A program made the position numbers and the translations under genes. From positions 352,001-416,000 of the forward strand of contig CAWGYD010000001.1 of assembly GCA_963826785.1 (NCBI GenBank): a stretch of 64,000 bases of DNA, given 5' to 3'. This document shows positions 32,937-39,018 of this stretch, piece after piece. A model generated the notes under the pieces. That model saw nothing but the letters and a program-made list of their open reading frames with translations, did no database searches and was not told the origin of the DNA. Source of the DNA: an uncultured delta proteobacterium. GTDB lineage: Bacteria; Desulfobacterota; Desulfobacteria; Desulfobacterales; Desulfosalsimonadaceae. Positions within the stretch are counted from its first letter, which is position 1. Every line of letters begins with the position of its first letter.

Positions 32937-33053
32937 TCCATCAAAACAAATGCCGGGGGGGCACAACGCCCTCCCGGTAAATCCCCGATGAGCGGGGTTT
33001 ACCCCCGCTCCGCGCTGGCCTGATTCATCTGAATCGGGACACAAACTGCAAGA

Positions 33054-33090
33054 GCAAAGGGCCGCTTTTTCCCAAAAGCGGCCCTTTTGC
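33054..33090 (+). terminator. Rho-independent terminator
   Basis: AAAGGGCCGCTTTT...AAAAGCGGCCCTTTT. Confidence 0.8.
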
Positions 33091-33287
33091 TTCTCGATGC
33101 TGCAGTATCAATAGAAGACCTAAATTTTTCTTGAAAAACAAAAAATCCTGCCCTATTGCTTAATTATTATTTTCTTCGGCACCGGGGGATTTTACGCCAA
33201 TACCCATGGGCGGTATTTCAAAAAATGGCATGCTGTAAGTATTTTCCGGCCCGTCCTCTTTTCATCTTTTCATAAAGGATTCAGTTG

Positions 33288-33566
33288 ATGAAGCTTTACG
33301 TCGGCAATCTCGCCTACTCCGTCACGGAGTCGGACCTCAGCACAATGTTTGGTGAGTTCGGTGAAGTTTTAAGCGCAAAAGTCATTACGGATCGTTTTAC
33401 GGGCAAATCAAAGGGATTCGGCTTCGTGGAAATGGCGAACAAGGAGCAGGGCGAAAGTGCGATTGCCGCGCTTAACGGCAAGTCACATGATTCCAGGGAC
33501 ATGGTGGTCAACGAAGCCCGTCCCCAGGCGAAAAAAGAGTTCAAATCCGGCCCCAAGCGCTGGTAA
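33288..33566 (+). CDS. RRM-domain RNA-binding protein
   Basis: RNP2 LYVGNL and RNP1 KGFGFVEM. Confidence 0.95.
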   Translation: MKLYVGNLAYSVTESDLSTMFGEFGEVLSAKVITDRFTGKSKGFGFVEMANKEQGESAIAALNGKSHDSRDMVVNEARPQAKKEFKSGPKRW

Positions 33567-33616
33567 TTGCCGATGGTCTCGGCCTTGGCCGCTATTCTGT
33601 AGAAACGTAAGCGTCA

Positions 33617-33651
33617 AAAGGGGACTGCTGTCTTCAACGGTCCCCTTTCTT
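33617..33651 (+). terminator. Rho-independent terminator
   Basis: AAAGGGGACTG...CGGTCCCCTTT followed by a T-rich tail. Confidence 0.7.
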
Positions 33652-33700
33652 GTAATTCGCAGAAAACGCTGCGCACTGGATCAATTCAAGAGGAGCCGGC

Positions 33701-33916
33701 ATGGAAGTATGTACCTTAAATGAGTTTATGAAATCTATCCAGCCCTGGATCTCCGAGCAATATATTCGCAAAGCCTACCTGGATAATAACGGTGACTTCG
33801 TTCTGGCCTTCACGGACGGAGTGAAAAATGTCTACCGGGTGGCGGAATGTTCCCGGGACCAGCTGGTGGAGATACTCAAGGACATGGAGAAAGATGGAAT
33901 TGAGGTGTCCTTTTGA
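33701..33916 (+). CDS. Small hypothetical protein (71 aa)
   Basis: AGGAG RBS; TGATG coupling to the next gene. Confidence 0.7.
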   Translation: MEVCTLNEFMKSIQPWISEQYIRKAYLDNNGDFVLAFTDGVKNVYRVAECSRDQLVEILKDMEKDGIEVSF

Positions 33917-34515
33917 TGAAGGCTCAGCTGCGATCCGCCGCGGCGTCCGTTTACATCACCATAGAAGCGATCGGCGACATACTGCTGCGGAAGAGCAGCC
34001 GCGCAAAGCACCTGCATCTGAGCATCCGGCCGTATGATGGGATCCAGGTGGCGGTGCCGGAAAACGTGACGTTTGAGGCCGCGGAAAAATTCGTCCGCTC
34101 AAAAACGGACTGGCTCAAAAAACATCTCCCCAAAATCCAGGCACTGGAAGCCGGGGCCGACCGGCTGCGGCAGGAATCGGTCATGGACCGCAAAACCGCC
34201 CGGGGCATCATCGTTGCCCGCCTGCAGGTACTCGCCGAAACATCGGGGTTTTCCTACAACCGGGTCTATGTCCGATCTCAGAAAACCCGGTGGGGAAGCT
34301 GTTCGGAGAAGAACAACATCAACCTGAACATCGCCCTGGCCTACCTCCCCCGGGAATTGATGGATTACACGATTTATCATGAACTGGTGCATACCCGTAT
34401 CAAAAATCACGGCCGCGGATTCTGGCAGGAACTGGAGAGACATGTTCCCGGTGCCAGGCAACTGGACCGTAAACTCTGCCGGTATCAGGCGGTTCTGTAT
34501 CTGAACAACCCTTAA
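33916..34515 (+). CDS. YgjP/DUF45-type metal-dependent hydrolase
   Basis: QKTRWGSCS, HELVH and NHGRGFW motifs. Confidence 0.9.
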   Translation: MKAQLRSAAASVYITIEAIGDILLRKSSRAKHLHLSIRPYDGIQVAVPENVTFEAAEKFVRSKTDWLKKHLPKIQALEAGADRLRQESVMDRKTARGIIVARLQVLAETSGFSYNRVYVRSQKTRWGSCSEKNNINLNIALAYLPRELMDYTIYHELVHTRIKNHGRGFWQELERHVPGARQLDRKLCRYQAVLYLNNP

Positions 34516-34533
34516 TGTTTAATGAGGAGAGAC

Positions 34534-34755
34534 ATGGCGGAAGGCAAGATCACCCAATCCATGGCGAAGTTCTGCAAGGACACCTGCCCGGTCTGCACAC
34601 GGGCACGGGAAAACGGCCAGGGAATTCTGTATCAGCTGACCCGGGTCGAAGAGCACGTATGCCCGGCCTGCCGGTCCTACAAGAAAGTGTACGGGGTGCC
34701 GGCCCATGAAAAGATCGTAAAAAAGACCCGCGCCCGGCGAAAGAAGAAAAAGTAG
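34534..34755 (+). CDS. Small Cys-rich hypothetical protein
   Basis: GAGGAG RBS; CKDTCPVC...CPAC; basic tail. Confidence 0.7.
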   Translation: MAEGKITQSMAKFCKDTCPVCTRARENGQGILYQLTRVEEHVCPACRSYKKVYGVPAHEKIVKKTRARRKKKK

Positions 34756-34894
34756 CCCGGCTTCGTTGACCCTGCCGCTGCAGATTCCTATTATTTTACA
34801 AGATAGTCTCTATACACAAATGAGATAATTTGCCCGATTCGCGGGGTGTGGATGCGGATATGAACTGCACGTTTCCATAAAAAGGGGGGACTTT

Positions 34895-35512
34895 ATGGCT
34901 GTGATCACGATTGCACGCCAGTTCGGGGCCGGCGGGCAGACCGTCGGGCGGATGGTCGCTTCGCGGTTGGACTATCTTTTTCTCGATGATGCCATCATCC
35001 AGGAAATTTCCAGAAAAACCCGGGTGACCCAAGGGGCGGTCAAGGGAATGGAGTCGATGGCCGGCGGGTTTATTTCCCGCGTCATTACCGGCGCCATCAG
35101 CCGCAGCTATATGGAGCGGCTGATGGGTGACCGTGCGGGCTACATGGATGAAAACATCTATGTGGAAACACTGATTGCCGTCATCCGCGAATTTGCGGAA
35201 AAAGACAACGTGGTGCTCCTGGGGCGGGGCGGACAGTACGTCTTAAGGGATTTTGAAAATGCATACCATTTTCTGCTGGTGGCGGGAAAAGAGGATCGCA
35301 TCCGTTTTATGAAGAACACCTATCACCTTTCCGAATCCAATGCAGCCGGGGCCGTTGCGGACGGCAGCAAGCGGCGGGCCAACCTCTACTCCAAATTCGG
35401 AAGGACTGACTACAATGATCCGTCCCTTTACCACCTGATCTTAAACATGAGCAGGATCAGCGTTGAGCAGGCGGTTTTGCAAATCTGCAGCCTGGTGCAA
35501 AAGAGTTCCTGA
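34895..35512 (+). CDS. Cytidylate kinase-like family protein
   Basis: ITIARQFGAGG, VLLGRGG and YHLILN motifs. Confidence 0.88.
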   Translation: MAVITIARQFGAGGQTVGRMVASRLDYLFLDDAIIQEISRKTRVTQGAVKGMESMAGGFISRVITGAISRSYMERLMGDRAGYMDENIYVETLIAVIREFAEKDNVVLLGRGGQYVLRDFENAYHFLLVAGKEDRIRFMKNTYHLSESNAAGAVADGSKRRANLYSKFGRTDYNDPSLYHLILNMSRISVEQAVLQICSLVQKSS

Positions 35513-35538
35513 ACGAAACGAACTTTTTGCCCGAAAGT

Positions 35539-35862
35539 TCAGCAACAGGCTGACCGCGATTTCTTCCCTGCTTGCGTCGGTTCGATCACACAGCAGCATT
35601 CCGAACCTGAGCGGCCCAGAAACGAGTTGATGACCGCGGCCGCACACCCGACCCCGGCATCGACCCGGATCGCGTCCGCCGGGCAGTTTTTGGCGCAGGC
35701 CCCGCATTCCATGCAGGCATCCCGGTCCGCAATTTTAGCGCAGCCGTTTTCCAATTGAAAAACCGCGTGCGGACAGACCACCGTGCACATGCCGCAGCCC
35801 ACACAGGCACCTTCATCCAGTTTCAGTGTAACCACATCTTTCAGGTACTTCATCTCGTTCAT
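35539..35862 (-). CDS. hgcB: Mercury methylation ferredoxin HgcB
   Basis: Two CxxCxxCxxxCP motifs including CMECGAC; GVGCAAA; C-terminal vicinal cysteines; starts 16 bp after the hgcA stop. Confidence 0.95.
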   Translation of the reverse strand: MNEMKYLKDVVTLKLDEGACVGCGMCTVVCPHAVFQLENGCAKIADRDACMECGACAKNCPADAIRVDAGVGCAAAVINSFLGRSGSECCCVIEPTQAGKKSRSACC

Positions 35863-35878
35863 TGTTTCTCATTGTTTT

Positions 35879-37048
35879 TTACATCTTTAAGGCGAAACCC
35901 ACCCACAGGATCAGGCCTGCGGCGGCGGCTGCGATCTGTGCCGGAACCGCCCGCTTCATTTCTTTTCTGACCCCGGAAAGCGACGTGTAGGTGGATGATC
36001 CGGTAAAATTCATTCCCAGAAAAGAACCTGCCGCCGCGGCCATCAGGGCCAGTGCGGCAAACGGCATCAGTGGGGGCAGACTTCCGGAGAGGCCGTCCCA
36101 CAGGAACATTACCGTGACCGCACAAACAAACCCTGCGGCGGCACCCTTGACGGAAAAGGACCTCCCGGGAAGCCACGGCAACAGCAGCGGGGTGAGCACC
36201 GTTCCCCCGGCCAGGCCCCCGACCAGAACAGCCAGGGCAAACAATCCCGCCCGGGGATCAAACGAATCCATCGGGGAAATCAGGCCGCCCAGGAGGAACA
36301 GAACGGGAGCAGCCAGCAAAACCCATTTCAAGGTCGGGACCAGCTCCATGGGGATCAGGGCCGCGCGTTCGGCGATGGGAAATGTTTTGCGCCGCATCTG
36401 CGGCGTGGCTTTTTCCCCGCAGTCCAGGAAGCGCGGGAGATCGGCAGCCTCCACCGGACCGTAAACAACCGAGAATCCGGATTGTTTCTTCACCATGTGG
36501 GCGGCGATTCCGGGAGCGCCCAACTGCGGCAGGATCAGCTTCCGGTGACTGACCACGGTGGAAAGTCCGCTGGCCCGGATTCGCAAAACCAGTTCATCCG
36601 TGCCGAAAGTGCCTTTTCCTGCGGCGCACCAGACATTGATGCCCCGGGTGTCCAGCACCAGCATCCATGCAGGGCGGCCGGAAAGCTGCGATCGGAGCCG
36701 GTCAAAGCTCATCTTGTAGTTGGCTGTCACCAGGACGGGGGACTGTTCATCCGGATTTCCGGCGGCATACAGCCCGGGGTCCACGGTATAGGTCATGCGG
36801 CCGATTCCCCACCGGGCTTTGACGGTGCCCCACCGGTCCGCAGGCTCAAGTGCGGTGGGAATCCGGGGGATCGGTCCGGATGCGGTTTCCACCTTTCCCA
36901 TGACAAAAGGCTGCGTTGCGCGGGGGCGTTCAAACTGAACCCGCTTCCGGGGCGGTCAGCAGGAAGCGGAGGAAGCCGGCTGGATTTCAGCCTCGTTTAC
37001 GGTCGCCGCAATATTGACCGGAAATTCATTCATGTCGGTTTTGGCCAT
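35879..37048 (-). CDS. hgcA: Mercury methylation corrinoid protein HgcA, probable selenoprotein (Cys30-Sec31)
   Basis: TANYKMSFD, cap-helix GINVWCAAGKGTFG, LPQLGAPG, C-terminal TM domain with NFTGSSTYTSLSGV; frame extends to ATG 37048 through one TGA at 36958-36956. Confidence 0.93.
36920..36958 (-). promoter_or_regulatory. Candidate bacterial SECIS element after the in-frame UGA of hgcA
   Basis: mRNA UGA-CCGCCCCGGAA-GCGG-GUUCA-GUU-UGAAC-GCCC-CCGC; the apical loop starts with GU 20 nt after UGA. Confidence 0.7.
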
Positions 37049-37078
37049 TTCATTGTCCTGGATATGTTTTTACAAGGT

Positions 37079-37140
37079 ATTCGAATCCGCCTGGATCCGT
37101 TCCGGGAACACTATTTTAAGACATTTTCCGCTATTTTCAA
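37079..37140 (-). promoter_or_regulatory. Putative hgcAB promoter and downstream imperfect palindrome
   Basis: TTGAAA-16-TAAAAT (37140-37113); ATTCG-N8-TGGAT at 37079-37096. Confidence 0.45.
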
Positions 37141-37297
37141 GATCAATCGTTATTTCGGCGGCCGCACTTGCTTCTTTCAGAACATATTTCCGAGGGGGGA
37201 TGCAACCCCCTTTTTTGCGGCTTTGCGAGAGAAAATTTCGCGTTTCATTTCATGGAAACGATCGGTGGCGTGAGCGGATCACCGGATGGGAATTTTT

Positions 37298-38713
37298 TTA
37301 CCGGGCAGGGGAGGCGCTTTCGGAATGGATTGAATTTCCGGTCGGTGACCGCTGATCCAAATGAAAGCAGCTTCCGGGTATGGATTTGACCCGCTTTTTG
37401 ACTTCGGCGCAGGCATCGTTGACCTCCAGGTACTGCCGGAAAGCCTGTTGGGACAGGTCCACCCCGGCCAGGCTGATGCTCATGATGGGAAAGACCATGT
37501 TGCGCTCCTGGCGGTCCTTGGCGGCGATGCATCCCGATTGGGCGTCCTTCTGGTCGTAAAAACGGGTGATTCCGTCGTCGAACCGGCGGATGATCTCCTC
37601 GCATACCCGCCGGCACTGATCGGAGCCGATCAGCAGGATGAAATCGTCTCCGCCGATATGGCCGATAAACCCTTGCTGCCCGTTATGTCCGGCGATGACG
37701 TCCTTGAAGATACCCGCGGTAAACCGGATCACGTCATCCCCCCGGGCAAATCCGTACTTGTCGTTGAAGGGTTTGAAGAAATCAAGGTCTGCATGGATGA
37801 CGCAGATGTCATGATTTTCTGATAGCGCCTGGTTGATCGCTTCGGCAACGGAGTTATTTCCCGGCAGGCCCGTGTTGGGATTGGCATCAAGGGCAAGGCG
37901 GTTGAGCATTTCCAGTTCAAGCATGGCAGTGCGGAGATTCAGGTGATTTTTCACCCGGACCTTGACGATTTGCGGGTTGATGGGTTTGATGACATAATCG
38001 ATGGCGCCGATGTCCAGGCCGCGGTATTCATCCGCTCCTTCATGCAGGGCGGTGATAAAGATCACTGGAATGTCCCTGGTTTTCGGGTTGGTCTTGAGCA
38101 GTTTACAGACGGCATACCCATCCATATCCGGCATCATGATATCGAGCAGGATCAGGTCCGGCGCGTTTTGCGCCACCATCCTGAGCCCCTGCCGACCGTT
38201 TTCGGCCACCAGTGTCTCGTATTCGGATCCCAGAACATCCACCAGGATGTCAATGGTGAGCGGATCATCGTCTACGATCAGGATTCTGTGCCTTGCCTTG
38301 GCCATTCGGTGCGCCGGCGGTGCGAATTTTTTTTCTTCCGTCTCGTTGCGCCTGATTCGGCTGATCGAACCCAGGACTTCAGCAAGCGCATCGTTGAATC
38401 GGGTGATGGTGCCGCTGTTTGCCGTCAGGTTCCCGTCAGCGGCCGCTTGTTCGAGGTCTGCCGCCGCGTGCTGCAGGGATTGTGCGCCGAAGATCGCAGC
38501 GACCCCCTTGATGGAATGGGCCGTGCGGCGCACCCATTTTAAATTATTTTTTTCACAGGCTCTCGTCATCAAGCGTACGGTCTGCCCGTATTCATGGTCA
38601 AACGTCTGGAGAAGAGAAATGCAAAGGTCATTGTTCCCCTTGAACCACCTCTGCATCTTTTCCATATTGATGCCCGGCAAGTGAGCGGGCAAATCGCCTG
38701 ACTGATTTTGCAT
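37298..38713 (-). CDS. Hpt-REC-GGDEF signalling protein
   Basis: AHSIKG (Hpt); IVDDD, LLDIMMP and KP (receiver); FKPFNDKYG and GHIGGDDF. Confidence 0.88.
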   Translation of the reverse strand: MQNQSGDLPAHLPGINMEKMQRWFKGNNDLCISLLQTFDHEYGQTVRLMTRACEKNNLKWVRRTAHSIKGVAAIFGAQSLQHAAADLEQAAADGNLTANSGTITRFNDALAEVLGSISRIRRNETEEKKFAPPAHRMAKARHRILIVDDDPLTIDILVDVLGSEYETLVAENGRQGLRMVAQNAPDLILLDIMMPDMDGYAVCKLLKTNPKTRDIPVIFITALHEGADEYRGLDIGAIDYVIKPINPQIVKVRVKNHLNLRTAMLELEMLNRLALDANPNTGLPGNNSVAEAINQALSENHDICVIHADLDFFKPFNDKYGFARGDDVIRFTAGIFKDVIAGHNGQQGFIGHIGGDDFILLIGSDQCRRVCEEIIRRFDDGITRFYDQKDAQSGCIAAKDRQERNMVFPIMSISLAGVDLSQQAFRQYLEVNDACAEVKKRVKSIPGSCFHLDQRSPTGNSIHSESASPAR

Positions 38714-39018
38714 GCGCAATTTTCTCACAAAAAATGAATTTATATTTTGAATTGAAAAGAACCGGTGGAGACGATGAGAAGCATGGGCGGAAAAACCGCA
38801 GCATGCATATTAGATGAAATTACAAACTTACACCAAAATTCTAAAAATGCAATATCAGAGTGCGTTTTCCAAACAAATGCAAGGATTTTTGCAGATAAAA
38901 CCATAAAATGCAAATCCACTTTTGGTTTGATAAATATCACTATCCGGTATATCGGAGTTGGTTGATTCGATCGGCATCATGCCGTTAAATCGCAAGCAAG
39001 CTGTATGGAAGGGATAAG

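Follow-up and report, generated by a model that had tools for sequence, protein, structure and literature searches.

The hgcA-hgcB locus

The window analyzed in this study, i.e., the whole stretch of 64,000 nucleotides, carries on its minus strand the gene pair hgcA and hgcB, the latter located directly downstream of the former. The features of the locus are as follows.

35879..37048, minus strand: hgcA, encoding 389 aa with selenocysteine (Sec), comprising a corrinoid-binding domain, the cap helix NVWCAAGK (138-145) and five C-terminal helices
36902..37048, minus strand: hidden N-terminal arm of HgcA, residues 1-49, based on the frame and a predicted model
36956..36961, minus strand: Cys30 (TGC) and putative Sec31 (TGA), motif S-C-U-P-P, 107 codons ahead of cap-helix Asn138
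36920..36944, minus strand: putative bacterial SECIS hairpin, loop motif C-A-G-U from 19 nt past the UGA, based on conservation and covariation
36899..36901, minus strand: Met50, the start chosen by a plain ORF caller, without a ribosome-binding site (RBS)
37056..37059, minus strand: AGGA, a Shine-Dalgarno-like element 7 nt ahead of ATG 37048
37113..37140, minus strand: sigma-70-like promoter candidate TTGAAA-16-TAAAAT, a consensus match only (10/12)
35539..35862, minus strand: hgcB, a ferredoxin with two CxxCxxCxxxCP motifs, a conserved extra Cys, a CCC cluster and a C-terminal CC

By every feature that could be tested in the sequence, hgcA is a mercury-methylating gene, the methylation of Hg itself being predicted. 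The whole protein scored 451.1 bits against the HgcA family model NF040863 (cut-off 275), which places it within the family, and HgcB scored 119.6 bits against NF040864 (cut-off 99). An HgcAB-like fusion (NF043039, 197.4 vs. a cut-off of 285) and the CFeSP gamma subunit (NF003195, 77.4 vs. a cut-off of 306) were both rejected for this HgcA. Residues N138 to A142 of the cap helix were invariant across 76 sequences, and we take the motif to be the one that carries the cobalt-ligating Cys of HgcA. In the structure model the predicted membrane helices span residues 232-256, 265-288, 298-321, 327-351, and 357-388.

The sequence-only reading had proposed that the hgcA frame continues upstream of its apparent start through a TGA, and this was borne out. 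The frame is open from ATG 37048 to 35879, running from ATG 37048-37046 through MAKTDMNEFPVNIAATVNEAEIQPASSASC to the TGA at 36958-36956 (codon 31) and further through PPRKRVQFERPRATQPFV to Met50. The start of the table-11 ORF is ATG 36901, i.e., Met50, which is 49 codons short of ATG 37048; hgcA almost certainly starts those 49 codons before the start given by the naive caller, with the UGA read as selenocysteine. The pLDDT of the predicted model was <50 for residues 1-23, 69 for residues 31-40, and 96 for residues 41-50. Residues 1-23 are thus predicted to be disordered and residues 41-50 to be ordered, and a start at Met50 would remove an ordered segment (41-49). The related expectation that standard gene callers would truncate the protein holds for plain ORF calling, but Haft and Gwadz (bioRxiv 10.1101/2022.07.06.499078) report that reference data were added to NCBI's PGAP.

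Conservation of the Cys-Sec motif

The gene hgcA was present in 28 of the 60 relatives. Cys-TGA was found in 11 of these 28; in ten the distance to the cap helix is exactly 107 codons, and in one, a PCUGP form, it is 112. Cys-Cys was present at the same site in 15 and neither in two, which agrees with the expectation that C-[U/C] would be conserved at this position. A wider sample, which leans toward close relatives, was assembled from two sources, a draw across the phylum, in which 91 of 301 genomes were positive, and the 80 best of 597 named loci. Its 186 distinct loci comprised 64 with Cys-Sec (CU), 79 with Cys-Cys (CC), 19 with a lone U, and 24 without the arm in the examined stretch. Most of the CU sites (54 of 64) sit at 107 codons before the cap helix; 12 of the 19 lone-U calls fall within 105-110 codons, and the approximately seven outside this range were treated as ordinary stops. 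Among the 64 CU sites of this biased sample, SCUPP occurred in 8, PCUGP in 10, and CUGP in 15, and SCUPP together with related xCU[P/A/V] forms made up the majority.

In the FastTree analysis, which included 181 of the 186 rows after short or masked ones were dropped, the present HgcA fell into a 12-member clade composed entirely of CU forms, including one from a Desulfosalsimonas MAG, a placement that would suggest Desulfosalsimonadaceae. Sixteen changes between Sec and non-Sec forms and nine changes in the Cys beside Sec were counted. The tree was unrooted, and therefore gain and loss of Sec are indistinguishable. Judged from the sequences, the HgcA arm is evolutionarily labile, with Cys-Cys, Sec-without-Cys, and motif-free forms all occurring.

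Several variant forms were also observed. Sec without a preceding Cys (TU, LU, GU, and SU, two of them with UC) is scattered over the tree (loci L102, L115, L123, L132, L139, L144, L159, L167, L197, L208, and L239), and the same SECIS motif was present in 10 of these 11 forms. At locus L192, Ser (TCA) replaces the TGA about 107 codons before the cap helix while the SECIS hairpin is intact, and this is likely a recent loss of Sec by a single base change. Smithella-like arms have CxC (GCGCG or similar) in place of CC/CU (loci L099, L103, L109, L111, L210, L216, L230, and L252). Locus L035 (genome G054) has an hgcA without the CC/CU arm in the examined stretch and an hgcB with TGA at the position of the conserved Cys73, a position at which Haft and Gwadz describe an HgcB Sec site (10.1101/2022.07.06.499078).

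The putative SECIS hairpin

The stem-loop described in the sequence-only reading begins 11 nt after the UGA, as had been claimed, and spans 11-36 nt after it; its loop, however, does not start with G, for in the register of the family the loop reads AGUUU, with G as its second base and a closing C-G pair. Published constraints on bacterial SECIS elements (bSECIS) require a hairpin at 16-37 nt after the UGA and a G in the loop (PMC13188914), and the present hairpin agrees with them, having its loop 20 nt from the UGA, a loop G, a 5-bp upper stem, and a folding energy of -10.6 kcal/mol. Compared with the bacterial SECIS consensus (PMC13188914, Fig. 2A legend), this copy has the 5-nt loop register AGUUU, unlike most members of its clade, in which the loop is 4 nt long.

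Folding of the single sequence was rejected as proof of a SECIS element, because the hairpin was no more stable than shuffled sequences (z = +0.4 to +1.2). The generic bSECIS rule is also weak when used alone, since it was passed by 67 of 300 ordinary TGA stops (22%); seven of 12 hgcA Sec sites passed it, three of them through another hairpin. An Rfam scan of positions 33000-39000 returned six chance-level matches, none near the gathering score.

Comparison among relatives was more informative. In the DNA alignment past the UGA, C at +19 and G at +21 are invariant even though the encoded residues vary. The loop motif C[AG]G[GT] was defined on the 12 Sec sites of a discovery set of 27 sequences, where 11 of those 12 sites carried it; none of the 15 CC sites did, and among true TGA stops it was present in 11 of 571. 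Of the forms in the wider set, 59 of 75 with Sec and one of 62 with Cys-Cys had the motif, and hairpins with four or more base pairs were present in 51 of the 75 and none of the 62; when the 27 discovery sequences were removed, the motif remained in 48 of 63 Sec forms vs. one of 47 CC forms. Neither motif nor hairpin was present in the 12 CC forms closest in flanking peptide. Compensatory changes on both sides were seen in 5/7 and 4/6 predicted pairs of consensus folds, again among kin that are not independent. The stem codons outside those dictated by the loop motif were skewed, with Ala encoded by GCT in 28 of 33 cases (background 14%) and Ser by AGY in 30 of 30 (background 24%). The sequences are kin, so that these counts are not independent, and they are given without p-values. 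A lineage-level SECIS consensus for HgcA near GGCUC-AG[G/U]U-GAGCC emerges from the alignments. Conservation across relatives puts the Cys-TGA and the loop motif beyond chance, which the hairpin alone does not, and the proposal of a SECIS-like element 3' of the UGA is thereby supported by motif, hairpin, and covariation.

Translation start and upstream region

Pairing with the anti-Shine-Dalgarno sequence was estimated at -4.0 kcal/mol for ATG 37048, -1.5 for ATG 37033 (Met6), and +1.1 for ATG 36901 (Met50). These values uphold the earlier observation that an AGGA precedes ATG 37048 and that the downstream ATG has no evident RBS; with a best value of just -4.0 kcal/mol, however, the RBS of hgcA is modest even at best. 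The promoter candidate lies 65 nt farther upstream of the region of the AGGA and ATG 37048, and the scan that found it returned two sites vs. 0.6 expected. An open upstream ATG was present in 66 of 69 Sec-form relatives. A Met at the position equivalent to Met50, on the other hand, was found in none of the 69 Sec-bearing relatives, the present gene being alone in this among 70 Sec forms, and 22 of the 69 have an ATG somewhere between Sec and the first conserved strand. No conserved element was found in the upstream non-coding DNA of hgcA in nine relatives. A 7-codon out-of-frame ORF (MKWPKPT; 37030-37053, minus strand) begins 5 nt before the hgcA ATG and 2 nt past the AGGA, and it probably lies too near this RBS for the ORF to be used.

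Selenocysteine machinery and assembly quality

The check on Sec machinery gave a mixed result. A canonical tRNA-Sec is intact in the assembly, whereas selA is split by a one-base loss (contig C3:45278-46644) and neither selB nor selD was found in this 87.8%-complete, error-prone assembly. A search of the same assembly for selU was likewise negative. The gene yedF and one Sec formate dehydrogenase (Fdh) are also frameshifted. Besides hgcA, an in-frame UGA occurs in four MvhD genes, in which Sec occupies either of two positions, and in two formate dehydrogenase alpha genes; these genes (C4:350226, C8:41782, C6:660732, C1:61886, C3:220975, and C1:515833) have SECIS-like hairpins. All six pass the bSECIS rule, and five UGA genes besides hgcA look whole. 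A 96-nt tRNA-Trp(CCA) reported by ARAGORN (C1:229358-229453) is poorly paired, looks spurious, and was rejected.

All 19 good-quality relatives with hgcA had selB, and 18 of the 19 had selD. Among hgcA-positive genomes of the phylum, 80 of 82 were searched (G138 and G300 were left out), and selB and selA were each found in 76 of the 80. The two genomes with neither (G230 and G084) have non-Sec HgcA, and one CU genome in 660 contigs (G308) has selA and no match to selB. As selA and selB are nearly universal among hgcA-positive genomes, the co-occurrence of Sec machinery with Sec-HgcA is a test of low power.

The state of these genes in the present genome could be caused by the assembly. The genes neighboring selB and selD in relatives (purM, tsaD, hemW, and hom; pyrK, pgeF, rlmB, and yicC) gave no tblastn match in the assembly, and a family search for tsaD and purM found neither. 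Single-copy leuS and topA (C8:6655-19024) and dsrK (C6:513414-515010) are frameshifted as well. Genome-wide, 21 of 323 orthologues are broken, and 28 breaks were counted in 402 kb, i.e., one per 14 kb, often clustered. The broken fraction among Sec-linked genes (3/9 vs. 21/323) gives p of about 0.02 in a hand binomial calculation on a set chosen after the fact. Contigs from one DNA read run (a 0.07 share) did not bridge the break in selA. Since essential neighbors are missing or broken too, gaps and errors of the assembly are the most likely cause of the defects in selA, selB, and selD, and frameshift findings from this genome should in general be distrusted.

Relation to known systems

It was reported by Haft and Gwadz (2022; bioRxiv 10.1101/2022.07.06.499078) that the majority of HgcA proteins contain Sec, in a CU motif located ahead of the start that had been predicted, with PCUGP in 20 of 20 sequences and lengths of 363-400 aa; server-confirmed SECIS elements were not used in that preprint. 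A 2026 review also lists HgcA as a CU selenoprotein under NF040863 (PMC13188914). The N-terminal CU motif that had been mentioned in the sequence-only reading is therefore in the literature, and the Sec arm of HgcA is not new. The present HgcA resembles the published Sec-HgcA in its hidden extension, in the one UGA after Cys, in its length of 389 aa, which is within the range, and in the hgcA-hgcB pair, and differs from it in having SCUPP instead of PCUGP. It thus belongs under the CU trait, outside the PCUGP subgroup, although SCUPP-like variants may already be contained in the alignment of Fig. S7 of Haft and Gwadz. Neither an experimental test of Sec in HgcA nor a description of its SECIS turned up in a search that covered few subscription papers, and passages of bioRxiv 10.1101/2022.10.17.512643 contain nothing on Sec.

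The protein also resembles HgcA of Pseudodesulfovibrio mercurii ND132 in the cap-helix Cys, the corrinoid domain, and the five membrane helices (PMC11588087; PMC7305189), and the top fold match of its model was the ND132 model 9a0b (E 2.9e-19, 48% identity). The published ND132 model (329 residues), however, has no Sec arm, and the same presumably applies to the purified protein. The HgcB proteins of the two organisms share two 4Fe-4S motifs and a Cys tail; unlike that of ND132, the HgcB studied here has a CCC cluster besides the terminal CC.

Mechanism and alternative explanations

Taken as a whole, the mercury methylase HgcA encoded here is probably a selenoprotein with an accessory soft-metal arm. 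Read-through with Sec at UGA31 is very probable on the comparative sequence data; given read-through, an accessory metal-handling role of Cys-Sec is slightly favored. Translation would start at ATG 37048, as the RBS, the promoter candidate, and conservation suggest. In bacteria, SelB binds a hairpin just 3' of the UGA and brings Sec (PMC13188914). Here SelB with Sec-tRNA(Sec) would bind the hairpin, to which the covariation lends a SECIS role, through the loop G, and Sec would be inserted at codon 31. The predicted product would have a floppy N-terminal leader ending in Cys30-Sec31, with some 10 residues linking it to an ordered strand in the cobalamin domain. As shown for ND132, cobalt is bound by the cap-helix Cys of HgcA and the methyl group comes from SAM (PMC11588087), and the terminal Cys pair of HgcB has been proposed as an Hg shuttle (PMC7305189). 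The Cys-Sec arm could take Hg(II) from thiols or hold the methylmercury product, and it could hand Hg to or from methyl-cobalamin in parallel to the C-terminal Cys pair of HgcB; Cys30-Sec31 may be the high-affinity Hg site that had been proposed, and the proposed tie between methylation and selenium supply is likewise hypothetical. The arm is probably accessory, in view of the 16 changes between Sec and non-Sec forms and of the methylation of Hg by E. coli lysates expressing ND132 HgcA (PMC11588087), which is apparently a short form without the arm, judging from its 37 kDa and the Cys93 numbering. The metal-handling role itself is opposed by the 24 of 186 sampled loci in which the examined stretch has no CC, CU, or U arm, and by the apparent activity of the short ND132 form.

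Cys-Sec pairs have redox roles in other selenoproteins. It is possible, though less likely, that Sec is inserted here and Cys-Sec acts as a redox or reactivation center (a selenenyl-sulfide) or as a site for another metal(loid), the true substrate of HgcAB, with Hg handling being incidental. About ten relatives have Sec with no preceding Cys, often with a Cys nearby, which shows that the vicinal Cys-Sec geometry is not fixed, and Hg methylation is not regarded as a means of detoxification (PMC7305189). On the other hand, the pair is predicted to lie on a flexible arm, and its Cys-Cys alternative (79 of 186 loci) parallels the Cys pairs with which MerA and HgcB shuttle Hg (PMC7305189).

The UGA could also be mainly a selenium-dependent translational gate, at which low selenium would lead to a stop at codon 31 and to little HgcA, perhaps with a weak restart at Met50 in this organism. 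The UGA precedes every catalytic part, and an ATG follows it by 55 nt here, as some such ATG does in 22 of the 69 Sec forms. This is nevertheless unlikely as the main role. The 16 interchanges of Sec and Cys took place mostly in genomes having SelA/SelB, a pattern that favors side-chain chemistry over regulation; besides, Met50 has no RBS and is not conserved, and a start there drops the ordered residues 41-49 of the predicted model. Both the redox or other-substrate explanation and the gate overlap with Sec insertion being real.

More improbable still is a lineage in the process of losing Sec. UGA31 would by now act as a stop and the arm would be a remnant, with HgcA either produced in a short form from Met50 or absent. 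The failure to find selB and selD in the assembly, the frameshifts in selA, yedF, and one Sec-Fdh, and the Met at position 50, seen only here among 70 Sec forms, would fit such a loss, as would the three broken genes out of nine Sec-linked ones, somewhat above the genome-wide expectation of 6.5%. However, the assembly also has no match to the genes found beside selB and selD in relatives, the frameshifts extend to leuS, topA, and dsrK at one break per 14 kb, the tRNA-Sec is intact, and five other UGA genes look whole. Finally, a chance origin of the upstream frame and hairpin within a GC-rich leader has almost no probability left: in spite of the positive z-score and the want of an Rfam match near the gathering score, it is refuted by the fixed distance of Cys-TGA in 54 loci and by a motif that splits Sec from Cys-Cys forms, and the trait was published independently (10.1101/2022.07.06.499078).

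Significance

Based on the results of this study, the selenoprotein reading of this locus is a correct rediscovery, real and, as far as sequence comparison goes, well supported, and already published for the family. The small additions are a motif wider than PCUGP, a lineage-level SECIS consensus, and relatives with Sec minus the preceding Cys. The SECIS pattern could be used for re-annotating hgcA starts.

A stronger reading, which we regard as doubtful, is that a SECIS specific to one large lineage of Desulfobacterota makes full-length HgcA selenium-dependent, with Sec and not the Cys-Sec pair being conserved and Met50 serving as a fallback here. If so, selenium supply would set the methylmercury output, and this organism would be an exception in which the fallback gives an arm-less enzyme under selenium shortage. 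In that case, the published enzymology, done with the short form, would have overlooked an Hg-loading arm that the second half-reaction requires.

HgcAB is the maker of environmental methylmercury. If many methylators need Sec for full-length HgcA, a need that is already in print as a prediction, selenium and the Sec machinery would be testable controls of methylation, and biochemistry on the short annotated HgcA would miss the likely Hg-handling arm.
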